Position numbers and translations under genes: made by a program. Of a stretch of 64,000 bases of DNA, positions 5,212 to 62,229 are shown one piece after another. The notes below the pieces were generated by a model. That model saw nothing but the letters and a program-made list of their open reading frames with translations. It ran no database searches and had not been told where the DNA came from. This stretch comes from Gnetum montanum. Taxonomy: Eukaryota > Plantae > Gnetophyta. The stretch spans positions 298,531-362,530 of the forward strand of contig MNCI01000472.1 of NCBI GenBank assembly GCA_015680685.1, read 5' to 3'. The stretch's first letter is position 1. The number at the start of each line of letters is the position of its first letter.

Positions 5212-6694
5212 GTGCATATTATGCCTTTATAAAAATTTTATTCATTGCAAATTAAGGCCAAAAAGGAACTTAGAATTGAAACTTTAGCTTATGTGCAATA
5301 AGCTTAAAAGGAGCATTTTTTAACTTATCTTTGGGCTTGTTCCCCATCAGCTGATACTTTAAAAATCCTTTGATATTCATTCTGTACATATCCTTTTTGT
5401 TCTTCAAAAAAACTCAAAGAAATTGGTGTATGGATATTTATCATAAATTTGATTAAATCAAAACCTAAAGAGGATGAACTCACTCTTTGAGTTTAAGCTT
5501 TTCTTTCCTTAAAATGCATAAAGCGTTTTCAACAAGATAATTACTTAAAGTCTTGCTCCATTAAATGGTCAAAATGTAACAAAACTAGGCATCGATTTGA
5601 ACAATACCAAATCAATATTATTGCTAACATATCAATTTTCACTAATGTCATGATAGGAATCAATATGATTGTTAACCACTAGTTGTTGCTCCAGTGATTG
5701 AAATCAATATATTTGTTCTCATCTTGTGCAACATTAATCCAGCAATAAAGTTTTATAAGTTTGCAAAAAATTCTAGAGAGCTTGTCACAGCTATCTTGCC
5801 CCAATGATAAAGTTCAGCATGCATAAATAGGATCTTGATTCTAATCATACTAGGTAACATCCAATGATAGCATTATTTTTATAAGTGATTTCTTGCCATT
5901 GGGGCTAGATCATGAGCATTTTAATTTATGACTTTTGCTACTTATATTCTACTATTGATCTCTAATAAATATTGGTACTAGTAACAATTTTATTTCACCA
6001 AATTTGTTAAAATAATTAACCTAACCTTACCTACAAAATAAGGTTATTAAAGCTGAACTTGCATATGGAACAACTATGAGTAGGCATACCAAGTATAATG
6101 AAATTAACTTTACTCTTCATGAACCATTTTTTGGATGAATTTTTCAAATTTGAATTAGGAAATGTAGATGTAATACTAAAAATGTCAATTTTTCAAAAAT
6201 TTAATATTACTACCCACTTTGGGACCCATGTATTAATAGTACCAACTAATGATGAAGTTAGGATTTTAAGGGAGGCAAGAACATCAAAGATGATTCACAC
6301 CATAATCATCAAATAGGCCAAAAAACCTATTTAAAAAAGGCACTACTATGTTCATTGTAAAAGTAACTCAACCTAAAAGACATATAGACATTGAAATTTT
6401 AAAAGAACTAAAGGAATATAGAAATTTGATATTCAATGAAACTAGAAAATTAGTACGTAAAAAAACTATAAAAGATGTGATTAATATCTTTCAAGGAATA
6501 GAACTAGCATCAAAAGCCTCTTACTAGTTTTCCACCTTGAAACTAAGAAAATTACACATAAAATTAGATTAATTATTAGAGAAAAAGAAAATACATCTTA
6601 GATTTTTACCTTGGGAAGCATCAATCTTGTTTGTTAAGAAGAAGGATGGTACCTTATGGTCATGCATTGATTATAGAATGTTAAACAAGGTAAT
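5212..6694 (+). pseudogene. Chromovirus element B segment 1 (gag end, protease, RT start)
   Basis: Decayed zinc knuckle near 5570, protease remnant near 5960-6200, RT start [24 protein letters not shown] ending at the C insertion. Confidence 0.8.
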
Positions 6695-6780
6695 TGATGA
6701 GACGTGATTTGCACTAGGCCGTGATATCGCATCTTCTCTTGCGATATCGCATACGCGATATCGCGTCCCGCCGCCATTTC

Positions 6781-6787
6781 TATAAAT
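6781..6787 (+). promoter_or_regulatory. TATA box of the C LTR
   Basis: CTATAAATAAG directly after the palindromic GCGATATCGC repeats; candidate poly(A) signal AATAAA at 6955-6960. Confidence 0.7.
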
Positions 6788-6898
6788 AAGAGGCGGCACT
6801 CCCTTCATTTCCCAATCCTGGCTAGTGTAGCGAAGCTCTGGCAGATTGATCACTCCAGAGTTAGAATTTTTCCCCATGTGCCCGCAGTAGGAGTCCTA

Positions 6899-7453
6899 GA
6901 GTGAACGGCTCTTTATTCGAGCAGCTTGTAACCTGAACCCAAGTTGTGTACGGCAATAAAGACGAACTTGTTTGGATAAACCTTGCAGCACGTGGTTTCA
7001 TTTATTGCTTTATTTCCTGCTTTCCTAGTGCGTTCAAGTACGACTTGATTACGAGCGTCTACGGACGTGTACGGCTAGTCAAGGAATCGGCTGCTTGACG
7101 CAATGCATGAGTACGACTCAATTACGAGCATTGGATGCTTGGTAACCCAGTAGCGTATTCCAGGATTCTGCGCTTGGTAACTCCCGGGTCTAATGTGTAC
7201 GGCTAGTTGAGGAATCGGCTGCTCATTGCTAGGCTAGATCGTGTGATAAGTACGACTTAGTTACGAGCACCCACGGGTGTGTACGGCTGGCTAAGGAATC
7301 GGCTGCTTATCACACGTAGGCTAAATAGGTGCCTCAGTACGACCACTTCGAGCACTTGCGTTACGTGTGGCGATCCCAGTAACGATTAGCGTTTGGTAAG
7401 CTGCAGTTGCATAGTTCAGGGTGTGTCCGGTAAGTGGGAACGGATGCTGACGC
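6899..7453 (+). ncRNA. Putative cis-acting structured RNA array in the C 5' LTR (5 hairpins, 10 copies of one internal loop)
   Basis: Hairpins at 6899-6969, 7029-7102, 7105-7229, 7240-7316 and 7331-7453; loops conserved, stems covary, G-U pairs favour the + strand. Confidence 0.75.
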
Positions 7454-7735
7454 TAGTTAATTTAGACTTAGATCTTAGTTAGAGTTAGTTTAGTTTTCTC
7501 AACCCTTTCTCCTGGTAGCATAGAAGATAAGCCAAAAATACCAAAAAAATCACATACCTCAGACTTGCTTAACCATACACCGTGACACTTACAAGCAAGC
7601 CTGGGAAGACAACGAACGATTAACCCCAAGTGTTTCTTGTGGTGTTAAGGCATTTAGTCTGCGGAGTTCGACCGGATCGCGCGTGCACGCTCGTATTCGT
7701 ATGGTTGAGTGTAGGGGTACCTCGCCACTCATCAT

Positions 7736-7753
7736 TGGCGCCGTTGCCGGGGA
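7736..7753 (+). promoter_or_regulatory. PBS complementary to tRNA-Asp (Athila type)
   Basis: TGGCGCCGTTGCCGGGGA, 1 nt after the LTR end. Confidence 0.92.
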
Positions 7754-7856
7754 CTAAGTGTTTTTACGCCAATTGAACATAAGGGATATCACTCACATCG
7801 TTGTGAGCCTAAAACGAACCTTAGGGTTAATCAGTTAATTCAGAACATAAATAACG

Positions 7857-10800
7857 GTGAAAATTAGCACACCATTAGAAATGGCTTCTTCTCATGCAAT
7901 CAACTCACCTAAGGACAATACAGGAGAAAGTCAGGATCATACGCATAACCGAAATCAACCATGTCCTCAACAATCCAAAGTCACATATACTCATCCCGAT
8001 GAGTATGTGCCGGATTTTACCTTTGTTTTCCATCAAGATGAGCAACTGCGGTGGAGAGACATGCAAGGTAACATCGTGTTACCCCCAGATCGCTCTGCTC
8101 CCAACATGCTTTTCCGTGCCTTGGTACAGATTGGCATGCATGAGCTGTTCGCTGAATACGTTTTGGATGACTATGACACAAGGGATTATCATCCCACAAA
8201 TGCCCAACGTATTCGGGATGCAAGGCAGGAGAGCCAACATTCACTATTGAAGGGCAAGGTTCCCCACGTCATTAGTGAAATAGGAGAAGAGGAACCCCTC
8301 ACGATGGGTTTCTTAGAAAATGATGTTCCTCCTCCTCACTCTAGTGAAGAGGTTAGGCATCAGGGCCTTAGATCAACGATACATATTCCAGGCTCTGATC
8401 CCCGTGAGCACCAGCTGTTCACGGCAGGAACAATCACTCGCACTAATGACGGACTCGTTGATCGTCACAACGATCGGGGCCGAAGCAGCCGAAGAGAAGG
8501 CAAGAAACATCACCATGGTGATGGATCCCCTTCTTCTTCCCCTTCATCACATCATTCACCCTCTCCTTCCACATCTGGGCGCAGCCACCATGAGCATAAC
8601 GCGGAAAGTAAAGGTAGAAGAGATGAAATGCCTCGACAAGAAGGTCGAGAGGAGTTAGGACAAGGACAAGGACGTAGGGAGAATAGGGAACCACAACGTA
8701 GACATCACAGACGTCATGAAAGAGATGATCATGACGAACCCCTATTCGCAACCCGAAGTATGCTTGACATTAGAGAGGCAGTTAGGATTCCCACAAGGCA
8801 TTTGAAAGACAGTAGGATCAAGCGTTTGGATATAAATAATATCCCACGTTTTGAAGGGGGATACAACGCTGATCCTCAACATCATTTACAGGCATTCCAC
8901 GACGCCTGTGCCTTGCAGAACATAGACAATGAGTGGCAGAAACTCAAGTTGTTCCCAAGGACACTCACTAAAGAAGCGGAAAGCTGGTACCGGTCCTTAG
9001 AACCGGAAACCATCAGGAGGTGGAGTACGATGCTCGAATTGTTCAACAACAAATATCAAACGTACTCCAGAGTGTCTAACTTGCGTAAGCAGATCCAAGG
9101 CTGGAAACAAGGAGCTCATGAATCCTTGGATGCTGCCATGGCCCGTTACTACACATTGCTACATCGTTGCCCGGGCCATGGGTACGCTAAGCGGGATCAA
9201 CTTCGCCACCTCGTGGATGGGCTACGAAATGAAACGAGAAGAACTCTTGGGACTTACGCCCAAGGGAGACTCTCCCAACTAAGAGCCCATGAAGTTGAAG
9301 TATTGTTGGAACAAGTAGCGCAAGAAGAGGGTGAGCTACGGAAAAGAGAAAGTGCGGAGGAATACAACCGTGATCCCTCCCTTCGTAAGAAGGGAGTGAA
9401 ATTCTGTGATGAGGAGGATGAGTCACCACTCGAAGAGTTGGTGAACAGGAAAACTGTGCCGATCCAAAAGTTAACAACGGAGGTATCGGCTAAGGTAGAC
9501 CAAATGTGGGATTCCTTAGACTCACGAATAGAAACAGTCCTGAAAATAGTAGAAGAGTCTAAGGATGAGCAAAGTAGTGATAAAAGCAAGAACATGCGGA
9601 GAAACTTTAACCCTGCACATAACAAGGGTAAGGGAAAAATCTCTAACTCCGATGAGGCTGAAAATTCTGATTCAGACAATGACGGTGGATGTGAGGTCTG
9701 CTATTATGACCATCCTAAGGGATGTTGTCCAATTATCTCACATCTGCAGGAGTCTGGGGTGTATGCATTAAATCCAAGACTTAATCAACGGCAAACACCC
9801 AGAAGGTTACCTTATCCACAAGGTAACCCGAGGCAGTTCCACCAACCCTTGACGTATTATCCAAGTGGAACACCTCCGCAGCCCATCGAGCAACATCAGC
9901 AGTGGCAATACCCACAGTCATGGGGGATGCCACAGCCAACACATCGATACCCTTACCGGCAGCCTGATCCTTATGGTTATTATGTGCAGCAGCCAGTTTC
10001 TCCAGGTGACGCTATGAGTCACACTCCACGCCGTCACTACTACGCTCGGGAGTACTTCAGAAGGACTCCTTCTCCTCCGGGAGACATTCCACATTCTGTC
10101 CATCCTCTAACTCCACCCGCACCTTTTCCTCAAGTAGTTCCCATAACACCTCCTGCTCCAACAATGCAAGGGGAATTACCTACCCAACCGCAGCAACGTC
10201 ACGCCGCGAGATCTGTAAATATTCAGAGTGTAAATATCCAACCGGACACTAGTTCTGGCGATAACTGTACAAAAAGGAGACCCTTTTTCAGAACTAGGAG
10301 CCCGGATAGGCTCTCGCAACAACAAGCGGACGGGTATATGTATAGGCCTCTAACTACTAACACTTCGGAGCACCCTTCAGTCCAAGGGAATGTAACGCAT
10401 ACGGTTATGCTAACACATACCGTAACTGACTGGATCAAGGTAGGCCACCTTCCCAGGAAACTAACTGATCCTGGGAGTCCCTTTATTCATTTGCAGATCG
10501 CTGGGAATGCACCACATCGAGCTCTTCTTGACTCAGGTTCCGGAGTCAACTTAATTTCGCGAAAGATGTATCACGCCTGGAACCTGCCCCAACTTAAGAA
10601 GAGCAACATCCAACTAGAGCTGGCAGACCAGTCCATCACTATTCCCTTGGGTTTGGTGGAGGACGTTATCACCACTGTGTGTGGTTGGTCCTACCCAGCG
10701 GATTTCCTAGTGATCGATGTTAACAACAACGAAGGGGACTTCCCAATTATAATGGGAAGGGCATGGCTAAGCACAGTAGATGCATGCCTTAGGATCCGTG

Positions 10801-11225
10801 ATCTTTCCTTGGAAATCTCCAAGATAAACATATGTGGAAAGATCGAGAAGAGGATAGTTCCATGCATCACATACAGTGATTCATCGGGTGATGACACGGA
10901 GGAAATGTCTCCATGTCACAGGTGTGCCCAGGAAACTCTGCAACAAAGATGCCTGTATGTAGCAACCACACAAGAAGTAGTAGACACCCCGTGGTTGACA
11001 GCTTCTCATAAGAGCAAACAAATATGCATGGAACGAACTGAGGAAACTCATGCCAACAACCGTGGCATAGATACATTGGAACGTGAGCGTCGCCAACTTC
11101 CAACCCTGAATTTAAGATCATCAATTGGGAGAAGTTGGGCACTGCTTAGAAATTCAAATAGGCGCTCACTACTTCGGATCTCTCCCTCACAACTCAGTCA
11201 TGGGGGAGATGGCCACCTATGCTAA
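7857..11225 (+). CDS. gag: Intact Gag-aspartic protease polyprotein of C (first ATG at 7881)
   Basis: 1122-codon ORF: retrotransposon Gag core (IPRFEG..DPQHHL..F, LKLFPRTL..EAESWY, QGAHESL..A..RY), CxxCxxxHxxxxC knuckle (CEVCYYDHPKGCC), Athila-type KLTDPGSP and protease ALLDSGSGVNLI...PIIMGRAWL; no RT motifs. Confidence 0.92.
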   Translation: MKISTPLEMASSHAINSPKDNTGESQDHTHNRNQPCPQQSKVTYTHPDEYVPDFTFVFHQDEQLRWRDMQGNIVLPPDRSAPNMLFRALVQIGMHELFAEYVLDDYDTRDYHPTNAQRIRDARQESQHSLLKGKVPHVISEIGEEEPLTMGFLENDVPPPHSSEEVRHQGLRSTIHIPGSDPREHQLFTAGTITRTNDGLVDRHNDRGRSSRREGKKHHHGDGSPSSSPSSHHSPSPSTSGRSHHEHNAESKGRRDEMPRQEGREELGQGQGRRENREPQRRHHRRHERDDHDEPLFATRSMLDIREAVRIPTRHLKDSRIKRLDINNIPRFEGGYNADPQHHLQAFHDACALQNIDNEWQKLKLFPRTLTKEAESWYRSLEPETIRRWSTMLELFNNKYQTYSRVSNLRKQIQGWKQGAHESLDAAMARYYTLLHRCPGHGYAKRDQLRHLVDGLRNETRRTLGTYAQGRLSQLRAHEVEVLLEQVAQEEGELRKRESAEEYNRDPSLRKKGVKFCDEEDESPLEELVNRKTVPIQKLTTEVSAKVDQMWDSLDSRIETVLKIVEESKDEQSSDKSKNMRRNFNPAHNKGKGKISNSDEAENSDSDNDGGCEVCYYDHPKGCCPIISHLQESGVYALNPRLNQRQTPRRLPYPQGNPRQFHQPLTYYPSGTPPQPIEQHQQWQYPQSWGMPQPTHRYPYRQPDPYGYYVQQPVSPGDAMSHTPRRHYYAREYFRRTPSPPGDIPHSVHPLTPPAPFPQVVPITPPAPTMQGELPTQPQQRHAARSVNIQSVNIQPDTSSGDNCTKRRPFFRTRSPDRLSQQQADGYMYRPLTTNTSEHPSVQGNVTHTVMLTHTVTDWIKVGHLPRKLTDPGSPFIHLQIAGNAPHRALLDSGSGVNLISRKMYHAWNLPQLKKSNIQLELADQSITIPLGLVEDVITTVCGWSYPADFLVIDVNNNEGDFPIIMGRAWLSTVDACLRIRDLSLEISKINICGKIEKRIVPCITYSDSSGDDTEEMSPCHRCAQETLQQRCLYVATTQEVVDTPWLTASHKSKQICMERTEETHANNRGIDTLERERRQLPTLNLRSSIGRSWALLRNSNRRSLLRISPSQLSHGGDGHLC

Positions 11226-13210: not shown

Positions 13211-13222
13211 AGTCATGGGGGT
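13211..13222 (+). promoter_or_regulatory. Polypurine tract of C
   Basis: AGTCATGGGGGT just before the 3' LTR; an equivalent motif lies before the LTR of H. Confidence 0.85.
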
Positions 13223-13223
13223 A

Positions 13224-14243
13224 TGATGAGACACGATTTGCACTAGGCTGCGATATCGCGTACGCGATATCGCATCCCGCCACCATTTCTATAAATAAGA
13301 GGCGGCACTCCCTTCATTTCCCAATCCTGGCTAGTGTAGCGAAGCTCTGGCAGATTGATCACTCCAGAGTTAGAATTTTTCCCCATGTGCCCGCAGTAGG
13401 AGTCCTAGAGTGAACGGCTCTTTATTCGAGCAGCTTGTAACCTGAACCCAAGTTGTGTACGGCAATAAAGATGAACTTGTTTGGATAAACCTTGCAGCAT
13501 GTGGTTTCATTTATTGCTTTATTTCCTACTTTCCTAGTGTGTTCAAGTACGACTTGATTACGAGCGTCTACGGACGTGTACGGCTAGTCAAGGAATCAGC
13601 TGCTTGACGCAATGCATGAGTACGACTCAATTACGAGCATTGGATGCTTGGTAACCCAGTAGCGTATTCTAGGATTCTGCGCTTGGTAACACCAGGGTCT
13701 AATGTGTACGGCTAGTTGAGGAATCGGCTGCTCATTGCTAGGCTAGATCGTGTGATAAGTACGACTTAGTTACGAGCACCCATGGGTGTGTACGGATGGC
13801 TAAGGAATCGGCTGCTTATCACACGTAGGCTAAATAGGTGCCTCAGTACGACCACTTCGAGCACTTGCGTTACGTGCAACGATCCCAGTAACGATTAGCG
13901 TTTGGTAAGCTGCAGTTGCATAGTTCAGGGTGTGTCCGGCAAGTGGGAACGGATGCTGACACTAGTTAATTTAGACTTAGATCTTAGTTAGAGTTAGTTT
14001 AGTTTTCTCAACCCTTTCTCCTGGTAGCATAGAAGATAAGCCGAAAATACCAAAAAAATCACATACCTCAGACTTGCTTAACCATACACCGTGACACATA
14101 CAAACAAGCCTGGGAAGACAACGAACGATTAACCCCAAGTGTTTCTTGTGGCGTTAAGGCATTTAGTCTGCGGAGTTCGACCGGATCGCGCGTGTACGCT
14201 CGTATTCGTATGGTGGAGTGTAGGGGTACCTCGCCACTCATCA
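13224..14243 (+). repeat. 3' LTR of C (1020 bp), including a second copy of the hairpin array (about 13408-13962)
   Basis: Direct repeat of 6695-7734, followed by the TSD. Confidence 0.97.
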
Positions 14244-15722
14244 GTAATGATTAAAAATACCTATTTCTTACCTAGAATTGATGATTTGTTCAATCAACTT
14301 ACATGAGCATGGTTTTTTGTTTTGAAAATTAATTTAAAATATAGCTACAACCAAATAAGAATTAAAAAGAAATAGAAAAAACTACATTTAAAATAAGGTA
14401 TGAATTATATGAATTCATAGTAATGTCATTCAGGTTGACTAATGCACCTGCAACATTTATGGCTCTTATGAATAAAATCTTTAGAGAATATTTAGATAAG
14501 TTTATCATTGTATTTATTGATGATATACTAGTATATTATAACATAAGAGAGGAACATGTTGATCATGTGGAAACTATTATCGAGATTCTAAAACAAAATC
14601 CATTAAAAGCCAAACTAAGTGCTTGTGAGTTCTTTAAGGAAGAAGTATCTTATCTCAGTCAGATTGTATCAAAATAAGGATTTCAAGTACATTCATCCAA
14701 AGTAAGTGTAGTCAAAGAATGATTAATATTTAAGGATGATATGGTAATTTGTAATTTTCTTTAACTAACTAGATTTTATCACTACTTGATAAAAGATTAC
14801 ACTACCTTGATAATATAGTTGACTAATATTTTACAAAAGAAACATGTATTTAATTTTGAAAAACAAATGCATGGAAGTATTTCTAAGGTTAATGATGCAC
14901 TTAATAACAACTTCTATCTTGAGGATTCTAAACAAATCTACCATTAGGAGTATCTACAAATGCCAATGAAGTGGGAAATAGTATAATTCTTTCTCAAGAA
15001 GATAAGGTGGCATGTTTTGAGTCTTGTAAACTACAAGGAACTATGGTAAATTATTTAACTCATGATCTAGAATTATTAGCTATTATTCATGATTAAAAGG
15101 TTTGAAGACATTATCTTTCTGGGAAAATTTTATTTTAAAAACTAATCATAAAAGTTTAGAATACCTATGAAGACAACCAGTTTTAAATATATCACAACAT
15201 AGGTGGGTGGAACTACTTATAGAATATAATTTCAAGATTAAGTACATTTTTGAAAAATAAAATGTAGTGGCTAATGCCCTTAGATGAATCTAGAACCACA
15301 TGAGTAATGTTATGATAATCCCTATGAAAAAAGAAAATAAGAATCATATAAAGAAAGACCCTTATTTTAAACATGTTTTGACCAACATAACTTCTAAATC
15401 AAACTACCAGCATTCCTCACAAGGAATGTTGATGAAAGATGAGAGAGTATGTATTCTAGAAGGAGTGTGGAGGTATAAGTTACTTAGCAGATCTCATGAA
15501 GTTTCATATGCTAGGTACCCTAGTTATATCAAGACTTATGTAATGCTACACAAGTTTGATTTTTGGCTTGGCATGAAGAATGATATAACTTTATATATCA
15601 AAAATTGCCCAATGTGTCAAAGAGCTACAGCTAAGCAAAGTAAGCCTAGTGCCCTATTACAACCATGAGAAGTCCCAACACAAAATTGGGCAATGTCAGT
15701 ATGGAATTTATTTTAGGATTAT
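14244..15722 (+). pseudogene. Element B segment 2 (RT, RNase H, integrase N-terminus)
   Basis: LPRIDDLFNQL, MSFRLTNAPATF..FIDDILVY, integrase zinc-binding region (YIKNCPMCQR..LLQP). Confidence 0.88.
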
Positions 15723-17515: not shown

Positions 17516-19407
17516 CATTGGTGACCATTTGGGATGTGATTGTCAATGAAGCTTCTCCAATCAAGGTTTAGGTGCTTGCTAGTCTTTGGCAACACTAAGG
17601 CCCAAATACCTCCAAACAAACTTAGTGGTTGTGAAATGTACTAAACGTGAGTATGTGTTTGCTATTGAAAATGTTGAAATGGTTGGTTCATGTATAAAAC
17701 TGTAATTAGCTATCATAAAGAGATTCAAATAACTTTGTCAAATACTATGAGTTGTTGGAGATTCCTATTTTGTCCAATCACTTAGTCTATATGGTCCTTA
17801 TAATACCTACTTGTAACAAATAAAATTTTACAAAAACATTTGAGCATAATTCTACTAATCTACCCCTAATTTCCCCTAGATAGAAAGTTCCATAAGAAAA
17901 TTAGAAATAGAATGATATTCAATGAACTTAGAAAGAGAAAGAAAAGAAAACAAATTTTTGTAAACTCTCAAATATTTAAGCAAGATAAATTAATACGAGT
18001 AAACACTTCACAATAAAGCTATTACTAATTCAATAACTACAAAATGTCAAAACTTTTTAAACTCAACAAGCAATTTTATAAGGAAAATATTATTATACTA
18101 CCAAAAATTGTTGTGTAAATGACAAAGTATGAGTCTGTATTTTGGTTAGTTAATAGATGTCAAAGATTACATTCAACAAAGCTTTCAAAAAATTTGACAA
18201 TTTCTTAATTGAAATACCAAGGCAATAAACTTTAAAAATAAAGAATTCATTTTAGTCACATCAAAATACCAAAAATTTTCTAGATCCTCTATGCTCAAAA
18301 TAGGAAATTTTGTTAAGATACTACTATTAAATTGCTCTTGAGGCTTCCAACAACATGAGCTCTTCTATGAAAAATCCTAATAGGAGCCTAATATTGCACA
18401 AAAGCAAAGCTATAAAAGCAACCAAGGAAAAATCCAAAAATTAATTTCCAAGCATGATGCTATCTAAACCATTAGCTAAGCAACTAAAATAAAATGGAAA
18501 GAAATGAACTCATAGGATTAAAACAAAGTGGCTGAATTGGTGTCTTCAACAAGCTATCTTACAAGAATTCTTTAAATTTATTTTCCAAAATATTCTCCAA
18601 AAATCCTTTTCAAATCTACCTTTGAAGGTCCTTTTATAGTGACCTTAAGGTAGTGAAAATAATCATGAGAAGTTATAGGTCTTACAAATATCTTAGGCAC
18701 ATAAAATTATAGCCACCATAGGAGTTATAGCTTCCACGAGAATTTAAAGCCACATTTGGCAAGTGTCTTCTTGGTAATGGAAAATCAAAATTAACCAAAA
18801 ATAACTTGAAATTTTAATTGTAACTATCATAAGAAGTTACAACTTCCATGAGGAATCTCAAATCCAATAGAGAATTACATTTGTCAAATGTCTCATTCAC
18901 ACAAATATCTCATAAATTCCTTCTTTTCCATAAGTGACAATATGTTTCCTTTCTTTTATATATGTGAATTATTATCAAAACTCACATCTTATCCTTATGT
19001 TTTTCTTTTTAGTCAAACTCGGTTGCATCAGTGCACAAAACTTTTTATCCTTGTTTTAACATTTGATCATATTTCTTATGCAAAGATGTAACAGGTGTTG
19101 AAATGAGGGTTTGCATTTCATTGCATTGCATCTATCATGTTCTTGATGCCGTAGATGCCATTCTTTATGAGTCTAGGTAGCAACAACAATTTTTTGTGGC
19201 AAAAACCTTGATGGTGCATTTGGAAGTAGAGGCAGTTTTTTCCTTGGGCTCCATCACCATCATTCCAAGAATGATTGTAGAGTATGGCCTTTCTAGATTT
19301 TCCTACATCACATGTATTTTCTAATGATGAATTAAGCTCTACACCAATGTTAGTATTATTAGAGAAAATTCTCTTATCCAAGTTTCCATTGGTTTGATCG
19401 TTTAATT
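17516..19407 (-). repeat. Surviving part of the E 3' LTR
   Basis: Colinear with 34913-36799; similarity stops abruptly where F begins. Confidence 0.9.
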
Positions 19408-34912: not shown

Positions 34913-37799
34913 TGTTGACAACCATTTGAGATGCAACCACCAACGAAGCTTCTTGAAATAAGGTTTAGTTGCTTATTGGTCTTTGGCAACACCAAGGCCC
35001 AGATACCTCCAAATAAACTCAGTAGTTATGAAATGTACTAGATGTGAGTACGTGTTTACTGTTGTAAATGTTGAAATGGTTGGTTCATGTATAAAATTGT
35101 AATCGGCTATCATAAAGAGATTCAGCTAACTTTGTCAAATACTGTGAATTGTTGGAGATTTCTATTTTGTTCAATAACTTAGTCTATATGGTCCTTATAA
35201 TACCTACTTGTAACAAATAAAATTTTACAAAAATATTTAAGAACAATTCTACTAATCTACTCCTAATCTCCACCAAAGAAAAAGTTATACAAGAAAACTA
35301 GAAATAGAGTGAGATTCAATGGACTTAGAAAGAGAAAGAAAAGAAAGTATATTTGTGTAAAACCTCAAATATTTAAGCAGGATAAATTAATACAAGTAAA
35401 CACTTTATAATTAAGCTATTCCTAATTCAATAACTACGAATTTTCTAAATGTTTTAAGCTCAAGCAATTTCATAAAGACAATCTTGTTATACTACCAAAA
35501 ATTGTTGCGTAAGAAAGAAAGTACGAGTCTATATTTTGGCTAGTTAATAGATGTCAAAGATTGCATTCAATAGAGCTTTCAAAAAATTTGACAATTTCTT
35601 GATTGAAATACCAAGGCAATAAAATTTAAAAATAAAGAAGCCAGTTCAGTCCCATCAAAATACCAAATATTTTCCTAAATCTTCTATGCTCAAAATAGGC
35701 AATTTCATTAAGACACTAGTATTAAATTGCTCTTAAGGCTTCCAACAACATGAGATCTTCTATGGAAAATTTTATAACAATCTAATATTATACAAAAATA
35801 GAGCTATAAAAGCAACCTAGGATAAAAACCAAAATTAAATGCCAAGCATGATACTATATAAACCATTAGCTAAGCAACTAAAACAAAATGGGAAGAAATA
35901 AATTCATAGGATTAAAACAAAGTAGCCAAATTGATGTCTTCAACAAGCCATCTTACAAGAATTCTTTAGATGTCTTTTCCAAAATCTTCTTAAAAAATCC
36001 TTTCCAAATCTACCTTTGAAGGTCCTTTTATATTGACCTTAAGGTAGTTACAATAATCATGAAAAGTTATGGGTTTTACAAATATCTTAGGCACATAAAT
36101 TTATAACCACCTTAGGAGTTATAGCTTCCATGAGAATTTTAAGCCACATTTGGTAAGTGTCTTCTTGGTAATGAAAAGTTAAATTAGCCATAAATATCTT
36201 GGAGTTTTAGTTGTAACTATCATAATAAGTTACAAATCCCATGAGGAATTTCAAATCCAATAGAGAATTACATTTATCAAATGTCTCAATCATACAAATA
36301 TCTCATAAATTTCTCCTTTCTGTAAGTAACCATATTTTTCCTCTCTTTTGTATATGTAAATTATTATAAAAACCCACATCATATCCTTATGTCCATATTT
36401 TTAGTACAAACTCTTTTGCATTAGTACACAAACCTTTTTACATTGTTCTAACATTTGATCATATTGCTTTTCACACATGTGACAGGTGTCAAAATGAGGG
36501 TTTTCATTTTGCTACATTGCATTTGTCATTTTCTTGGTGCTACAAATGTTGTTCTTTGTAAGTGTAGGTAGCAACAACAATTTTTTGTGGTAGAAACCCT
36601 GGTGGCACATTTGGAAGCAAAGGTAGTTTTTTCCTTGGGCTCCATCACCATCGTTCTAGGAATGATTGTAGAGTATGACCTTTTTAGATTTTCTTGCATC
36701 ACATATATTTTCAAACAATGAATTAAGCTCTACACTAGTATTAGTATTATAAGAGATAATTCTCTTGTCTAGGCTTCCATTGGTTTCATCGTTTAATTTT
36801 GGTGCTTACAAGGAGCTTTTTTTTGTTTTGTAGTTGCAATAACCAATGGCTTTGATTTTGCAATGGCAAAGTAGCTGGTTCAAGGTGAATTTAAATAAGA
36901 GGCATGACAAGAGGCAGGATCTACCACTTGTCTCCAATAGGTAGGGCCATCTTAAGATGAACGTTGTGGTTGTTTCTTGTTAGGAATCTTAATGGGACTG
37001 GTTGCAACAATCTTGGCTACTGAATCTTCATAACTTTTGAAAAATTCTGATATTTTTTAAAATCCATTTTTAGTGTAATTTAACTAGGAAATGGTAATAC
37101 ACAAGATTGACCAATTGTTTGTTTTTTCTTCTTTTTATTGATTGCCTTGTAATATTGATGGCACAACGTTTCTATGAAACTTCCCATTTTTTTATCATTT
37201 AATTAAAAGTTGTATGATATTGTAGAGGTGATCTTTAGATATATTATGGATAGATATGAAACTTGAAATACCTAGCAGTAAATTACATATAAAATTATTC
37301 CCTCTCATTTAAAATTCATGAAAAATAGTTCAGTAAAATTAGATACTTGAACATCATAATCCTCCAAACAAAGAGTCATTTTGTTGATGTAACTCTTAAC
37401 CTTCATCACATCAATTAGTGCAATACATGATAATATAAACACTATATTTTCTTGCAAAAATCAACATCAATAATCATGAGTTTTCCTAGATTCAACGTTG
37501 TTGGAGTTTGCAATCTTGGAAACTTCCAAAACAATATAATTTCTACATAACCTTTGCAACAATCAGTGTACATAAACCAATTGGAACTTTTCATTTTTTC
37601 CACCTAAAACAATTTCTTTTTCAATCTTTTTAGTGGGAGAATCTAGTTTCATGTTTTTAGATGAAATCCCACTCAATTCAAAATTCATATTAACTTCCTA
37701 AGACACTTCTCATAAATTCTTAGATGTATCAATCTCATTTGGTTATTTAACTACATTAGCTTCAAGTGCTACTCAATGGAATGGTTTGATGTGACAACA
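34913..37799 (-). repeat. 5' LTR of E
   Basis: TGTTGAC...GACAACA termini, flanked by a PBS-like sequence and the TSD. Confidence 0.8.
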
Positions 37800-43733: not shown

Positions 43734-44572
43734 TGATGAGCAGCGAGCAATCCCTATGCCCAACCATATGAATCACTAGCATTCACTAAGCAAACTGATC
43801 AAATTTTATAGACTTTAGCTTTCTATGTACACTAGGACTAGGTAGTGAATCTAATGGATGTGATCGTTGTCTTCTCAATTTCACTTGTGAAAGTGCAAAG
43901 GTATAGTTAAGTGTAACTGAGGTATATGATTTTTATCATTTTATGTTTTTCATTAATTCTCCTAAGTGCTTAAGATAAATTAATTAAGTGTTTAACTAAT
44001 CTAACTAACTAATCCTAACATAAGAATTTGTTCCCACTTTCTATACACATCCTAAACACATTGCAATGCTACTAGGTTATCAAGCATTAGGCATTACTAG
44101 GATTACCAAGCGTTAATGTATGCTCAAAGTGGTCGTACTTATGTGTATTAATTATCCAAAATTAATTAATTAATCAAATGCATTAAAGTAAAATACATAA
44201 ATAATAAATGCGTAAAGTAAACATTAAGCTAAGTCCAAGTGTTGTAAGGTTCATGAAGAAAGCTCATCTTTATTGCCATTCGCATTGAGGTGCTTAAGTA
44301 CATCAGTGCTTGAATAAATATCCCTACACTTCTCACTCCTACTATGGGAACTTTAATATTCTAACTTTGGGAAGACAAAAATGCAAGAGTTTAGCTAGCA
44401 ACTAATGTTTCAATGCTATAAATGTGGTGGATGTATGCATATTTATAGGTAAAAATAGACACTGCATTGACGTATACGCATCAACACAGCAAACCATGCA
44501 TCAATGCAATTGAGTTGACGGGATCACATCGACATGATCCTATTGATGCAAGTGAATGAGAATGACTCATCA
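43734..44572 (-). repeat. 3' LTR of H (839 bp)
   Basis: Terminal 40 nt align with the C LTR end; rc CATGGGGGTA precedes it. Confidence 0.85.
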
Positions 44573-54280: not shown

Positions 54281-55060
54281 ATGGATAGAAAATAAAAAAT
54301 AGAGAAGTTCAATGGAAGCAACTTCACATTGTGGAAAATAAAGATACAGGCAATTTTGCATAAATATAATTACCTCGCGACTATTGGAGAAAGGCCGTGG
54401 GAGGTCATAGATGACAACAAGTGGAATGAAATGGATAGTAATGTTATTGCCAATTTACACTTGGCACTAGCAGATGGGGTTCTTTCAAGTATTGTAGAGA
54501 AGAAGAAAGTGAAGAAAATATGGGACACTCTAATGAAGTTGTACAAGGCTAAATCACTCCACAACAAAATCTTCTTGAAGAGAAGACTTTACACTCTTCG
54601 TATGGCAGAAACCTCATTGGTAACTAAACATATCAACACCCTAAATACTTTATTTACTCAACTCACATCATTGGATTATAAAGTAGATGCAGGTGAACAT
54701 GTAGAAATTCTACTTTAAAGTCTACCTGATTCATATCATCAACTCATCATTAACTTGATCAACAATGTCCTTCTAAATGATCTTGTCTTCGATGAGGTTG
54801 TAGTTGTGGTTCTTGAAGAAGAAAGTTGGTACAAGAACAAGGAAGATAGGTTGGCAAACAAGGTAGAGGCCTTAACAATGATGAGAGGGATATCCATGGA
54901 ATGTGATCCCAATTGGAACCAAATTCATGGTAGATCCAAGTCAAGAAGAAAAAAGAAAAAAATTACTTACTACAACTATGGAAAGAGAGGATACCTAAAG
55001 GAGTGTTGGAACAAGAAGAGTAATGAAAAGAATTCTCAAGGAAATATGGTGAGTACCTCA
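54281..55060 (+). pseudogene. gag: Copia I gag
   Basis: IEKFNGSNFTLWKIKIQAIL, ANLHLALADGVL, SLHNKIFLKRRLYTLRM, decayed zinc knuckle YYNYGKRGYLKEC. Confidence 0.9.
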
Positions 55061-55423
55061 CATCCATCTAAAAGTCCCGTACACTTTGGAGCTCTATTAT
55101 ATGGACCGCAGGATTGATGACTATCGTGCCTCTGCAGGAAAGGAAATCAAACTTTATCTTGTTGGCGAGCACTCAGAAGAATCTAATGATAGCACAGACA
55201 GCACGCCTAATGATTCTCCCGGACAATATGATTACAGCTCTGAAGACTTCCACAACCATGCAGACGATTCTGATGGACATAGTGTCGATTTTGGTCCAAA
55301 CAGTCCACCGTCATGTTAAAAATTTGTCTGCCACAATCTCTTAAAGTGGATCCGAATCCTAAAAAGTAGATCGTCCCAGTTGGCATCCATTAATGTAAGG
55401 CGGTTTGTAAGGCAGTTTGTAAG

Positions 55424-55773
55424 CTATAAATAGCAGTGTGTGTGTGTGTGTAAGGGAATATAGATGCAAGTAGCATAAGTGAGTCAAGTAGTCTGCAAGT
55501 GTGAGTTTATTTCTGCAAGAGTGAGTAGTTGTAAGGAGAAGATATTAGTTTCTTGATGCTCTCTGCTCAGAAACTAAGCATTCTCTCCGCCACTGAAAGA
55601 GAAATCATTCTGTGATGCGCTTTGCTCTAGAACAAGCATTCCTTTCAGTTCTGTAAATGTTGGTGTGTGCAATAAAATGATTTGTTTTGGCATATCTGTG
55701 TGTTATTTGGTCTGCATTCAAATGAGCGTATGTGTTATGTGAACGCTGCGTACTTTGAGGGTGGTATCAGAGC
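55424..55773 (+). promoter_or_regulatory. Viral intergenic region: TATA (55425), leader, AATAAA (55671), tRNA-Met PBS (55762)
   Basis: CTATAAATAG, TGTAA upstream element plus AATAAA, and TGGTATCAGAGC in the order expected for a caulimovirid pregenomic RNA. Confidence 0.85.
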
Positions 55774-55838
55774 CTTTGAGGATTTGGGATTTGGGATATG
55801 GCATATCTGTGTGCAATAGTACTTTCTCTGGTGTGTAA

Positions 55839-56460
55839 GCAGGTTATCAATATATCCATCTTGCTGAAATTGTTATTCACCTTCATCCACACTTCAACTA
55901 TCGTCTCAAAAAGCCTTACTGGATTGCATTAATAGATAGGAGATTTAAATCGTTTCAAGAAGCCATTATAACCGAAGCTAATGGTAGATTAGTATCCGAT
56001 GCTCTGATTATAGCGATTCCTAACTTTACTCTCTCGCTTTCAGATCGGCATTTGTTTAATAGTTTAATGCTTATTACTTATATTCCCGTTGATATTGTAG
56101 ATCGTAGTGTTTATTGCACAATAGGTACAAGGTTAAGTTTTAAATTATTTAGTTCAGTCAGTATCCAAACACTCTTACCTTTTGGCCAACAAGCTCTCTC
56201 TGTTGGTTCAACAAATTTAGAATATAGGACACAGATTAACACAGGAGATCTTCCGATCCATAGGCTCTTCCCAGACCTAGAAGATCCTTTAAAAGAATAC
56301 TATGAGCAAAAAAGACCTAAAAAATCTTTATTCAGATCATCATCCAAATCTCGAAAATACTATGTAGAACTACAACCACCAAAACTCCTTCCTTATGATC
56401 CATAAGCTCCCAAACCTGTAAAACCCACAAAACCATTAATCCTGTTTAAAAAAAAAAATC
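55839..56460 (+). pseudogene. Viral 30K-family movement protein domain
   Basis: Frame of ORF 56052 extends upstream: GYQYIHLAEIVIHLHP..IALIDRRFKSFQEAII..PNFTLSLSD; no in-frame ATG. Confidence 0.8.
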
Positions 56461-56494
56461 AACTTATGAAGAATAGGAGGAGAAAATACAAAAG

Positions 56495-59400
56495 ATGGGA
56501 AAAATGTTCAAAGAACTAGGTATCACTTTAGATCCTAGGAGAGTCATAAAACAAAAGGGAGAAAAACCTGTACCCATTACTGAACAATCAGAAACAGATC
56601 AAAAAGGAAAAATAGTTTTAGAAGATGTCTCTACATCTAGTGCTAGTTCTGACGATGATGTATCATGCTCAATTAAACCATCACAAAGTTGTACACATAA
56701 GAATATACATAAGATAGATCATGACATTAGGTGTGTTGATTGTGATGAGTTATTAAGGATCAACATGAATACGGAAGAACAAAAAGAAGTAGCACATATG
56801 ATGCAATACAAGCCATCTATAGAACAACCCTCTGAAGTCATTAAACTCCATAACTGGACTAACCATAAGTTATCCTATGTAAGTGACCAAAATTTAATGA
56901 CATATGCAGAAGTAAAAGAAGTACAAAGAGACGTACAAGATTTGCATAAGATATGGGTTCCTAAGAAAAAAAATGGAAAATCTAAAGGTAAAGAAAAGAA
57001 ACTTGATCCGTCTGATCTAGATGGTATTTACTTAGATTCACCACCTATCACTCCTCCTAAAGGAAAGAAAAAATCAACAACAACTTATGTACCAAAAAGA
57101 CGACCGGTACATACAATTCCAAAATCTGAAAAAGGGAAAAAAGAGGAGGAAGAGATTAATGCTAATGAAGAAGATAACGAGACCCTTTATATTGGAAGTG
57201 AAGGATCTTTAGATGAAGAAGAAAAGAAAATGTTACAAAAACAAGGTATGATCTTCCAAGATCCTAAAGACTTGACAGCTATGCAAATCCGAAAGACATC
57301 AGAAAAACCACCACCATATTTTAGTATGGACAACAAATCTATTAGAGAAAGACAAAAAGAGATTGATAAAATCAGTGGTTTCATCGCTAGACAAATTGTC
57401 TTAGAAAAGAAAACATATGAACATGCCATACTCAACGCAACGTTAAATTTCGAAGGTATGTTAAAACGTTGGTGGAATTTCATAGAAGCTCCCGTACGTA
57501 AAAAATTATTAAACAATCCGCATGTTATTTTCTTAAATGCTATTACGAAAGAATTCTTAGGAAATAAAGCTGATAGGGATAGTGCATATAGGACGTTGTT
57601 TTATAGTTCAAGATTACATAAGATTCAGGACATGTCTCCATTCCTTGACATCATGGAAGAATGGTATTATTATGGAAAACTCATACATGACGTAGGTGCA
57701 AAAGAACATCTGTTAGGATGTCTTCCAACGCCTTTTGCTAGTTATTATCGAGCTCAACTTCAACATGAAGAAAAGGATCTCGAGGAAATGAGTTTTAGTG
57801 CCATCCGCCAATTCCTTGAAAAAGTCACAAGGGATCTGTGTGTCCAGCAAAAAACACAAAAATTAGTAGGATCCTTAACTAAACAAATAGGTAAAGACTT
57901 ATGTTTATAAATGTGTCCTGAAGATAATTTTGGACAGCTAAGTAGGAATAGAAAACAACAGACTGAGCCATGTGTATGTAAACCTACACAATGTACATCA
58001 CAGAAATATTCAAAACCAAAGAAAGTCTAGAAACGAAAATTTCAGCCAAAAATCAAACGAAAAAATTGGCCACAAAAACCTTTTAAAGGTATGTTTAAAC
58101 GAAAACAAGGGCCATATAAAAACAAGGAAGTCAGATGTTTCATTTGTTTAGGGAAGCATTATTCTAACCAATGCCCAAAAAAGGATAATCATCCTCAACG
58201 CATCAATTTCATCGAAACAATGAAACTTACGGAAGATGATTTTTTCCTGACATATGATTCTGACTTATCATTTTCAAACGGGGATATTTACTTAGAATCT
58301 TCAGATCAATATTCCAGTGAAATGGAATTCGAAGATATTCCTGACTATCCCAACGAACCAGGTGATTTAAATTATGATACAGATTCTTCAGGGTATATGT
58401 ATCATGTTTACATGAATGAAGAATCAGAAAGTGATGATCTCTATGAAAGAGATCCAACATATTCCATGTTAAAAACCCAACTACGCCAATTAGAAAAGAA
58501 ATGGCAAAAGGTTCCTTTAGAAGAATTACATAAATTTAGGGCTTACAAACACAAAGTAAAATCTAAACGAAATGAGATAGAAACACATAAGCAAATGCTC
58601 GAGGAATCATTCGGTATATATCAAGATTCCCAGAATCCAAATATTGTAGACTTTAAAGATGAAACAAAAACACCACATAATGAAGAAAGAGAAGTTACAC
58701 CAGATATACAAACTTCTATGTGGCGACAATTTCGCATCAAACAACTAAAGAAGTATCTTCAACAGGCCTCAAAGGAACTTGAACGCTTAGAACAACAAGA
58801 AGAGAGTTGGCAACAAGCAGAATATGAAAAGGAAACAAAACAGGTAAGCGTAATACTAGAAGTAAACTGTAATACTTCACGACCAATCTTACCTGCCTGT
58901 TCCTTTATGATATCATGGCCTAAGTATCATAGGTATACTATAGATTTTTTATTTGACACAGGCGCAGAAGTATCACTTGCTAGAGAAGAAACAATTCCAA
59001 CATGTTTTTGGGAAGAAAAGGAACCATCTCACATTTCCTTCAACACCCAGAAAAGGTTGTTAACAAAGCAAGCTAAGTTACCTATTCTAATGCCTGATAA
59101 AAAGATAATGTATTTTACAGTCTGTCAATTTCCCTCACCTTCTTATGATTGTTTAATAGGATCAAACAATTTACAAAATTTTGATATTACGATTACCAAA
59201 CAATTTATCAAATTAAACTAAGATGAGTTTACTAGGATAAATGCTAGACAACAATTTAGAAGTCAAAAAATCCAAAAATATAATCAAAAAAGGGAAACTT
59301 GGATTGTTAACCAAATTGAAAAATATCAACCAAGTTTTGAAGACATAAAAACTCAATTATTCCAATTCGCAAATGACGACCCTACTATATTTCGTCACAA

Positions 59401-60670
59401 AAAAGAACATTGGTGTCAGATCGAATTACAAGATGGAGTAAAAGTAAAGTCTACTGCACAACATATAGGAATGTCTCCTAATCTCAGAAAAGAATGTGAA
59501 TCTGAGATCAAAGAATATTTACAAAGAGGTTTAATCCGACCAAGCACCAGTATGTTTGCTTGTGCGGCTTTCTTTGTAAACAAACGAGCCGAATTAGTCA
59601 GAGGGAAAAAACATTTAGTGGAAAATTATAAACCTCCGAATGATATTATTAAATCATTTCAACATCCCATTCCAAATAAAGACGATCTGTTTCAACGACT
59701 ACCGCATACTAATATTTACTCCAAGTTTGATTTAAAATCAGGATTTTGGCAGATCCAGGTTCAGGAATCTGATCGTTGGAAAACAGCTTTCACAGTACCC
59801 GGCGGGTTATATGAATGCAACGTCTTGCCGTTCGGCATCAAAACTGCTCCATCCATATTACAAAAGATGATGGACTCTATTTTCCATTCTTATCCGTTTA
59901 TATTAGCTTACATAGATGATATTTTAGTTCTTAGCAAATCAGTAAAAGAACATCTAGATCATTTGCGTATTTTTTCTGACCTCATAGATAAAAATGGACT
60001 TGTCCTCTCACCAACAAAAATGAAGATCGGACAGTCTAATATCGAATTTTTAGGTTTAGAAATCTCTGCCGGTATTATAAAATTACAACCGCATATAGTC
60101 CAAAGTATTATTAAGTTTCCTGATATCTTAGAGAATAAAGTCCAGATACAACGATTTTTAGGATGTATAAATTATGTTTCTGGTTTCTTTAAGAATATAG
60201 CTAAGGAAAGAGATGTATTAAATATATTATTACAAAAACATTCTCCTCCATGGACTCCTACATGCACTGAGGCTGTAAAAAAGATCAAGCAAGCATGCCA
60301 AGAATTACCTCCGCTCTTTCTTCCAGGAGAAGGTAAATTTATCCTTAAAACAGATGCCTCTGAATGTTTTTGGGACGCCACTCTAAAACAAGAACAAAAC
60401 CATACGATCAGGATCTGTAGATATGCTTCTGGAAAGTTCAATGAAGCACAACAGAAATATCACAGTTCTCACAAAGAACTTCTAGCCATTGTCAAGGGCA
60501 TAGAAAAATTCCTTCTATTCCTCCAACCACAACGTTTCATCGTCCGGAGTGATTTAAAACATTTTGATAAGTATCTACAATCCAAAAATCTTACAAAGGT
60601 GTCTCATACACGTTTGATCCGATGGAGTTTATTTTTAGCAAACTTTGAATTCGATAGTGAGTATACTGAA
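56495..60670 (+). pseudogene. Viral polyprotein: coat protein, zinc knuckle, aspartic protease, RT, RNase H (single frame, several stops)
   Basis: ORFs 56495, 58091 and 59471 share one frame; CFICLGKHYSNQC, FLFDTGAEVS, YSKFDLKSGFWQI, YIDDILVLS, LKTDASE, KELLAIV. Confidence 0.93.
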
Positions 60671-60864
60671 CTTGACTCACTTATGCTACTTGCATCTATA
60701 TGCCCTTACGCACACACACACTGCTATTTATAGCTTACAAACCGCCTTACATTAATGGATGCCAACTGGGACGATCTACTTTTTAGGATTCGGATCCACT
60801 TTAAGAGATTGTGGCAGACAACTTTTTAACGTGACGGTGGACTGTTGGACCAAAATCGACACTA
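60670..60864 (-). repeat. Inverted copy of the viral promoter region
   Basis: Reverse complement of about 55280-55489, including the TATA box and following leader start. Confidence 0.92.
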
Positions 60865-60892
60865 GTACTAATGAATTTTAGTTTTATTTTCA

Positions 60893-61831
60893 GAATTACT
60901 CCGTAGCGAAGGATGGACTCTTCGTTCCTCAAGGAGGTTACGTCCTAGTTTGCCTAATGAAAGGTTTCTCAGTTTTCCCCAGTATTTTAGTGAAACTAGT
61001 AGGTTTGAACAAGAGTGGACTGATTTTTGTAATAGAACAAGATCTCAGAATTCTGATGCCATCATTTCCCAGAAGGTTTTTACAGCCCTTCCTCTACCTG
61101 CAAGAAGGACCCAATGGAACCAAGTTCCTGCTCCATACCTTTTCTTGGCCACAGACGTGAACCTCACCAACCTTGAATTTCGCAACTAGTATTCTACTAA
61201 TTGCTTAAATTGGCCTTATTACCAACCGAGTGATTTTCATGTCTACCGAATTTCTTTCAGTCCTCTCAGTGAACCTCCAGACAATGATGATTTGTTCTGG
61301 TCCTGGTGAGCTAAATTTGGTCATTCCCCTTCTCACTTACCAACTAATTATCCCGATCCACTTCGCACAAGTCTCTATGGTTACCGGGGTGATTTCTTGT
61401 TTTATGGGAATCCTGATCACATGGCTTGAAATTTTTTGCATATGGCTTCCAACCCAGTCTATTTCCTCATAACCTGCATTTCCAAAAGGAAAAACTGGCA
61501 ACTCACATGGGGGCAAGCTTTTTATCAGGATGTGTACACTGCTAATGCCTATGATATCCAGCACCACTGTCACATCCATCTAAAAGTCCCGTACACTTTG
61601 GAGCTCTATTATATGGACCGCAGGATTGATGACTATCGTGCCTCTGCAGGAAAGGAAATCAAACTTTATCTTGTTGGCGAGCACTCAGAAGAATCTAATG
61701 ATAGCACAGACAGCACGCCTAATGATTCTCCCGGATGATATGATTACAGCTCTGAAGAATTCCACAACCATGCAGACGATTCTGATGGACATAGTGTCGA
61801 TTTTGGTCCTAACAGTCCACCGTCACATTAA
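60893..61831 (+). pseudogene. Viral downstream ORF of unknown function (about 310 codons, 4 internal stops)
   Basis: ORFs 60950 and 61436 are one frame ending ..GPNSPPSH*; its 3' part is duplicated at 55058-55319. Confidence 0.7.
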
Positions 61832-62229
61832 AAAGTTGTCTTCCACAATCTCTTAAAGTGGATCCGAATCCTAAAAAGTAGATCGTCCCAGTTGGCATCC
61901 ATTAATGTAAGGCNAGCTATAAATAGCAGTGTGTGTGTGTGTAATAGCATAAGAATGCAAGTAGCATAAGTGAGTCAAGTAGTCTGGAAGTGTGAGTTGC
62001 TTTCTACAAGAGTGAGTAGTTGTAAGGAGATGATATCAGTTTCTTGATGCTCTCTGCTCAGAAACTAAGCATTCTCTCCGCCACTGAAAGAGAAATCGTT
62101 CTGTGATGCGCTTTGCTCTAGAACAAGCATTCCTTTCAGTTCTATAAATGCTGGTGTGTGCAATAAAATGATTTGTTTTGGCATATCTGTGTGTTATTTG
62201 GTCTGCATTCAAATGAGCGTATGTGTTAT

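Follow-up and report, generated by a model that had tools for sequence, protein, structure and literature searches.

The window analysed here, a 64,000-nucleotide stretch of the Gnetum montanum contig MNCI01000472.1, contains an intact 7.5-kb LTR retrotransposon with GTAAT at both flanks. Its 5' LTR (6695-7734, + strand; 1040 bp, beginning with TG and ending with CA) is preceded by this target-site duplication at 6690-6694, and its 3' LTR (13224-14243, +), which is followed by it at 14244-14248, differs from the 5' LTR by 26 substitutions in 1017 aligned bases and one 20-base indel. A TATA box, TATAAAT, lies at 6781-6787 (+), and transcription is inferred to start near 6810. The 5' LTR is followed by the primer-binding site TGGCGCCGTTGCC (7736-7748, +), which is of the Athila, tRNA-Asn/Asp type; the junction reads CATCA-T-TGGCGCCGTTGCC (7730-7748), a primer site beside an LTR end like TATCA, and the motif is printed as the Athila primer-binding site in the ATHILAfinder preprint (10.64898/2026.03.20.713144). 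A polypurine-tract-like motif (13214-13223, +) precedes the 3' LTR. The flanks are read as those of a decayed reverse-transcriptase gene (match at 14366) into which the element would have inserted. The polypurine-tract-like sequence CATGGGGG occurs at three sites in the element (11196-11206, at the end of the open reading frame, 12644 and 13214). The U3 region of the LTR holds repeated palindromic GATATCGC-type units (6720-6766, CpG ratio 1.8), and the 5' LTR has one more 20-base unit of this palindromic region than the 3' LTR. CTAG has nine occurrences in the LTR, a density of 8.7 per kb where the window as a whole has 4.6 and the open reading frame 1.5, and several of them are in linkers that precede hairpins (6714-7453).

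The open Gag-protease frame of the element (7881-11225, +) spans 1114 codons and encodes a Gag domain (PF03732, E 4e-12), an Arg/His-rich stretch (about residues 255-295 of P0001), a CX2CX3HX3-4C knuckle-like motif, and a protease-like domain that scored below the cut-off in the domain search (E 0.003) and was matched by tblastn to the protease of P0005 (E 2e-13). A search of the element for reverse transcriptase, RNase H and integrase domains gave no match. It is therefore a Gag-protease-only element, and non-autonomous, which an earlier first-pass annotation of this DNA had also held. Intact LTRs, a target duplication and a coding content of Gag and protease only agree with the description of the TR-GAG class (10.64898/2026.03.01.708851), and the element has in common with TR-GAG and Athila Gag-protease-only elements its two LTRs, a 5-bp target duplication, the Athila primer site and this reduced coding content. 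Protein searches for an autonomous partner found none, and the class of matches near in length was empty; the matches consisted of three close Gag fragments and one distant full polyprotein. The next relatives with names were distant flowering-plant Gags (nine of the ten looked up), and all Atlas matches were below 0.9.

Each LTR contains five hairpins, which we term U0 to U4, and these bear a single internal loop in ten copies, with CGA facing G-W-M-(U)-CGG-H. The first-pass annotation had placed five hairpins and ten loops in the 5' LTR, where we find them, and all five recur in the 3' LTR. In the 5' LTR the CGA strands start at 6918, 6963, 7041, 7052, 7114, 7125, 7253, 7264, 7340 and 7349, and the long strands opposite them are GUACGGC (four copies), GAAUCGGC (three copies), GAACGGC, GAACGGA and GUCCGGU. 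Hairpins U1 (7030-7101), U2 (7105-7229), U3 (7240-7316) and U4 (7331-7453), all on the + strand, have two loops each. U2 and U4 possess long apices, that of U2 with a two-fold repeated element, and U3 is the most stable unit, with pair probabilities of 0.7-1.0. A conserved tetraloop was rejected as a part of the motif because the caps differ, true UNCG being present in U1 only and U3 having CACG (CAUG in the 3' LTR). In U0 (6899-6969, +) two loops in mirror orientation flank a helix that contains AAUAAA (6955-6960). The first-pass annotation had counted both of these loops without remarking that the outer one is inverted: its 5' arm supplies GAACGGC and its 3' arm CGA. The 3' arm of the intervening helix is AAUAAAG, and the bases of the hexamer are predicted to pair with probabilities of 0.51-0.99. 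In the predicted fold of the loop, one strand has a G-W-M bulge and a G-H bulge with two C-G pairs separating them, and the first G of the long strand is predicted to be unpaired (0.82-0.99) in all six loops checked.

A second repeated element is found in the apices of U2 (7137-7190) and U4 (7362-7402), and again in an older LTR of the same window (44111-44068, - strand). A quasi-palindromic unit, which reads GCUUGGUAACCCAGUAG in U2, is present in it as two direct copies that could form two small hairpins or one rod, and a G-C pair in one hairpin is swapped for A-U in the other. This element is a possible dimerisation site. The U5 region contains two more hairpins without the loop module (7552-7611 and 7650-7710). 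The inverted loop, the AAUAAA in U0, the apical repeat and the older LTR go beyond the first-pass annotation.

Several lines of evidence indicate that the loops and their stems are maintained as RNA. All of the 80 pairs that flank the loops, four on each side of every loop, can form, 15 of them as G-U and none as A-C, which points to a signal on the + strand at the RNA level. A scan for the loop pattern together with its stems returned 12 matches on the + strand of the 5' LTR, namely the ten loops and two cross-pairings between neighbours, none on the - strand of that LTR, and none beyond the two LTRs. With this pattern, which was fitted after the data had been seen, 995 of 1000 dinucleotide shuffles of the LTR gave no match and five gave one. 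When U1-U4 of the two LTRs are aligned, 99.5% of the 184 cells are paired and ten of 24 pairs show two-sided change; the covariation score was reached by none of 500 shuffles and slid controls pair at 27-39%, controls that are flattering because the eight rows are four units taken twice and the structure was derived from the same sequences. Among U1-U3, 19 of 40 stem columns vary and none of 21 loop columns does (Fisher p 7e-5). Furthermore, in each of the five hairpins the stem 2 5' arm forms more Watson-Crick pairs with its own 3' arm than with that of any other unit. The first-pass annotation had described near-invariant loops on stems that differ yet pair, and this description holds; its assignment to + strand RNA holds by way of the G-U pairs, and the UNCG-like tetraloops it had cited in support are reduced to the one in U1.

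The loops might alternatively be sites recognised in DNA, or the product of neutral tandem duplication and repair between inverted arms. The units are clearly derived from duplication (U1 and U3 are 84% identical), the loops are rich in CG, a trait that DNA motifs linked to promoters can share, and the array folds no better than shuffled sequence: over 6880-7470 there is no excess stability (z 0.07), and among the individual units such an excess is confined to U3 (z -4.2) and U1 (z -2.2), with none in U0, U2 or U4. Arm repair, however, should erase mismatched loops and G-U pairs, yet 15 G-U and no A-C pairs are kept, and every loop is split over two strands at a varying distance. Additionally, RNA energies favour the + strand in five of five units while DNA energies differ by less than 2 kcal/mol, and the array has an observed/expected CpG ratio of 1.2, compared with 0.34 for the window. 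We consider an origin at the DNA level or by neutral duplication very unlikely. Between the two LTRs of the element, four of the 26 differences lie in loops. This is close to what neutrality would give, as should be the case once an element has inserted, and two of the four hit the tolerant last position. Partition functions computed over the whole leader give U0, U1 and U3 a fair to high chance of forming; U2 and U4 compete with other folds, U2 reaching 0.04-0.15 in global and about 0.5 in local folding and U4 being near zero; taken alone, U4 lies only 0.8 kcal/mol above its own best fold.

The first-pass annotation had proposed a covariance model as a check, and such a model, built from U1-U4 and searched against the window with E up to 5, returned 14 matches. 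Eight were the training units, two were the U0 hairpins (E about 0.02), three were weak, and one was an unseen related hairpin at 44017-44144 on the - strand (45.5 bits, E about 2e-9 under a rough calibration). The latter resides in an old related 3' LTR (43734-44572, -; 839 bp, 66-69% identical in the aligned parts) that also has a TATA box and bears two hairpins, one of U0 type (about 44331-44256) and one of U4/U2 type (44144-44017); U4 is orthologous to this sole U5 hairpin. Upstream of the old LTR are stop-ridden RNase H and integrase remnants (51210-50217), a region resembling the 3' non-coding part of the intact element, and a PF20167 frame. Together, 51210-43734 (-) represents the 3' part of an old pol-bearing Athila-like element, with the PF20167 frame at 47216-46632, a polypurine tract and the LTR.

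In the old LTR, 29 of 32 loop-flanking pairs can still form, including one that is swapped from C-G to U-A. Stem 1 of the U4-type hairpin is ACAUAAG/CUUAUGU, and stem 3 is GCAU/AUGU where U4 has GCAC/GUGU. The AAUAAA within the U0-type stem is also kept. The four loops differ from the motif at nine positions, eight of them transitions in a CG or CGG context, and all 16 non-CG core positions are intact; the old LTR is CpG-poor (ratio 0.43 against 1.09), so the CG letters of the motif are not confirmable there. A relaxed two-loop scan recovers the U4-type hairpin, misses the U0-type one, and finds nothing in six shuffled windows. The unseen match and the kept pairs give the module depth in time.

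Copies of the family in public contigs provide a further view of the array. The LTR or a part of it is present in 20 of the 24 public runs listed, spanning 12 studies, and one run may be the source of the window itself. Eight runs were aligned to the LTR in two comparisons, with variants taken from the best 40 of 223 and the best 40 of 85 rows, and shares given as summed, unphased contig depth. Four DNA runs yielded 116,485, 77,094, 101,965 and 587 contigs, and in three of the four unlike flanks start behind 7734 in 380-777 contigs per run. These contig numbers and hundreds of unlike flanks indicate that the family is very abundant. In the first comparison, 20 of the variant rows listed fall in 6895-7460, and the only loop variant among these 20 is 7427 C>A in U4, a change towards the common form at 40-54% of depth in all four DNA runs. 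The GUCCGG variant that the first-pass annotation noted in U4 is accordingly present here as one state of a polymorphism.

Among the rows listed, five variants fall in loop-flanking pairs and all keep pairing. In U1, 7057 G>A (56-61%) and 7066 C>T (48-61%) convert G-C to A-U, both at CG sites and unphased; the variant at 7289 changes U-G to U-A, and those at 7119 and 7120 give wobbles and may be U1-type stems aligned on U2. Variants at 7098, 7135 and 7316 break terminal stem pairs, with no change of the partner among the rows listed. Through 6909 C>A (35-72% in three runs) the inverted loop of U0 becomes a loop of the form that U4 has. The change 6951 C>T, which comes mainly from one contig, abolishes a loop. 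One inverted loop and loop variants that move between the forms of other units argue for modularity. Joints in the contigs reveal copies with fewer, more or recombined hairpins, for example a U0-U4 fusion and tandem joints that lead from the end of U1 back to its beginning. None of the joints listed (15 of 31 in one comparison, seven in the other) is of the GT-AG type, which leaves an intron across the array without support. One run recorded as RNA has 104 contigs and covers 6961-7374 only, with DNA carry-over possible; missing contig cover beyond these limits is not evidence of absence. Two contigs of a single study, from a run whose RNA status is guessed, end at 6990 and are not counted as evidence for poly(A) addition.

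The array corresponds to no RNA family in Rfam, which gave no match in the window at gathering scores and, at E up to 10, three weak matches in 6695-7900, none of them over the array. A pattern of the U1-U3 3' strand had no match in viral contigs and six in metagenome contigs, which are taken as chance since they lack the hairpin layout and any similarity to the element. No published description of the motif was found in the open literature, as distinct from subscription journals and preprint supplements, by searches that included its literal sequence, and two preprints on related elements (10.64898/2026.03.20.713144 and 10.64898/2026.03.01.708851), when searched for 'hairpin' and 'secondary structure', gave no mention of a repeated RNA module. 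The array is a real, selected and apparently undescribed RNA module, present ten-fold in an Athila-type LTR, whose function is putative. A kink-turn consists of a 3-nt bulge followed by tandem G-A and A-G pairs on the bulged strand; the loops here have extra bases 3' of GA on the long strand, and five of ten long strands begin with GU. The statement of the first-pass annotation that the motif matches neither the hammerhead nor a plain kink-turn is thus upheld.

Each loop or hairpin could in principle be an unknown self-cleaving ribozyme, a function that the first-pass annotation had offered beside protein binding. A single internal loop between covarying stems can suffice for cleavage (PMC11620745), and ribozymes are found in plant LTRs (PMC6765202). 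The minimal twister-sister-like ribozyme nevertheless has a 5+6-nt internal loop and is cleaved at a CA of the long strand (PMC11620745), while the loops described here are 3+7/8 nt and none of the ten long strands has a CA step. Retrozymes carry a hammerhead in every LTR of about 350 bp, lack an open reading frame and generate a 4-bp target duplication (PMC6765202); here there is no hammerhead or other Rfam match, the LTR measures 1040 bp, the open reading frame has 1114 codons and the duplication is 5 bp. In addition, ten cuts upstream of the primer site would remove the template for strong-stop DNA and be self-destructive. We regard cleavage as the most improbable of the explanations.

Invariant loops on stems that are free to change yet remain paired, in a unit that is repeated, invertible and variable in number, are the signature that would be expected of independent binding sites. 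We consider it probable that the loops form a docking array for a protein, either Gag or a host factor, so that of the functions offered in the first-pass annotation a multimerised protein-binding signal stands as the best reading. The closest analogue in layout is the CTE of type D retroviruses, a hairpin with two near-identical, invariant internal loops, each bound by Nxf1, whose duplication raises activity (PMC4338338). The first-pass annotation had named the CTE as a precedent, which applies to layout and to nothing further: the sequence is other, there are ten putative docking loops rather than two, and the setting is a plant LTR. No CTE match over the array appeared in Rfam at E up to 10, a family-level search and not a direct comparison of loop letters.

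By analogy with the CTE, a host protein could dock on the loops and promote export, stability or translation of unspliced RNA, or control the poly(A) signal of the 5' LTR. Seven AUGs lie ahead of the Gag start, making plain scanning unlikely and calling for an unusual translation route, and the AAUAAA predicted to pair between the mirror-image loops of U0 is kept in the old LTR. The U1A polyadenylation-inhibition element, which serves cellular autoregulation, likewise has two mirror-image asymmetric loops in one helix near a poly(A) signal; U0 is alike in layout and differs in loop sequence. Plants, however, are not known to have an NXF1 orthologue, and the array matches no Rfam family. A host factor is nearly as likely as Gag, and taken alone is a possibility of limited weight.

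Among single candidates we tentatively favour Gag, with the loops acting as a multi-copy docking array on the RNA leader that would most likely be bound by Athila Gag for packaging. Gag is the first candidate because the open Gag frame is kept together with its Arg/His-rich stretch and knuckle-like motif, because the close relative P0002 has a similar Arg/His stretch, and because retroviral Gag, through NC, recognises unpaired guanosines and internal loops of the leader (PMC4576207, PMC7599994). Judging from the TATA box at 6781 and from the AAUAAA at 6955, which sets a putative R/U5 border, U1-U4 would lie in U5 and U0 in R, so that the finished transcript would carry U1-U4 at its 5' end only. 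The eight tandem sites of U1-U4 would permit avid binding by a Gag lattice, and in R two mirror-image sites would flank the AAUAAA helix. It seems that the array expanded from a form with two hairpins as units were duplicated, with the diverged stems keeping every arm paired with its own partner, and a non-autonomous family might gain by multiplying a signal common to itself and its helper. The old LTR beside RNase H and integrase remnants has two hairpins against five here, which counts for the Gag reading, a link between hairpin number and autonomy that comes from one decayed relative while the number varies among copies of unknown coding status.

Other observations weigh against Gag-mediated packaging. 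The HIV-1 packaging hairpin is downstream of the primer-binding site (PMC7599994), whereas the array ends at 7453, upstream of the primer site that starts at 7736. The low whole-leader probabilities of U2 (0.04-0.5) and U4 and the terminal-pair breaks at 7098, 7135 and 7316 also argue against it. The Arg-rich stretch is weaker or absent in distant Gags, with 4-6 Arg per 20 residues in six of six checked against eight here. The HIV-1 leader and its SL1 packaging signal resemble the array in having 5' leader hairpins, internal loops and predicted unpaired G, and the HIV-1 poly(A) hairpin similarly encloses AAUAAA (PMC4576207, PMC7599994); the difference is that one motif is repeated here almost letter for letter. 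In the Rev response element an arginine-rich protein assembles on a number of purine-rich bulges (PMC4488727), yet the sites of that element are mutually different and lie in env, and no separate Rev-like gene is seen here. The ENE (Evade) places internal loops on a hairpin in plant LTR-retrotransposon RNA, but its loops are U-rich, bind the poly(A) tail and reside in the 3' UTR (PMC12501189), whereas those described here are CG- and purine-rich, with at most two U in 10-11 loop bases. The array seems to resemble a multiplied CTE, Rev response element or packaging signal without being a member of any of these.

The loops could also act as RNA alone. They would then serve as fixed bends or docking sites, either making the leader more compact or linking two copies of the genome. 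Neighbouring hairpins can swap arms, the 3' arm of U2 and the 5' arm of U3 giving two inverted loops like those of U0. The twice-repeated apical element is present in U2 and the old LTR, one 18-nt apical copy has a predicted self-dimer energy of -12.2 kcal/mol against -2.5 for the hairpin, and Ty1 dimerises via palindromes in its 5' UTR (PMC6844567). The number and order of hairpins, however, vary freely among copies, a pattern easier to reconcile with independent sites than with a fixed tertiary fold, and there is no conserved tetraloop partner; we consider a purely architectural role unlikely. Within the protein-docking reading, a more specific and rather speculative scheme, to which we give little weight, is that one element protein reads the module in both polarities. 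The mirror pair in R would clamp the AAUAAA helix and couple Gag to the choice of poly(A) site, the U5 tandems would provide packaging avidity, and non-autonomous families would raise the number of sites from four to ten, on stems that are not identical, to out-compete the helper for particles and enzymes. If so, the array would be a natural counterpart of engineered multi-hairpin tags.

How LTR retrotransposons choose RNA for packaging is little known (PMC6844567), and the array touches on the question of how plant elements that are non-autonomous and depend on borrowed enzymes can attain very high copy numbers. As an object for testing it is sharply delimited, a two-strand motif of 10-11 nt that brings its own natural controls in the form of invariant and tolerant positions, compensatory stems, an inverted copy, and two- and five-hairpin forms. 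Should a protein bind it, the motif would amount to a defined code of RNA-protein recognition in a plant Ty3 element, and possibly to a new RNA tag. With no ligand at all it is still a candidate for a new structural module of RNA.

The window contains other repetitive elements. The covariance model search found no loop module in a pair of direct repeats of about 1.9 kb (17524-19380 and 34921-36771), which are 17.4 kb apart, 83-89% identical, and probably the LTRs of an older element. An endogenous caulimovirid-like insert (55058-62228, +), which by the host range of such viruses would point to a vascular plant, encodes a movement protein, protease, reverse transcriptase and RNase H in interrupted frames. 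Its primer site at 55762 is of the tRNA-Met type, and it has direct repeats spaced by about 6.5 kb.
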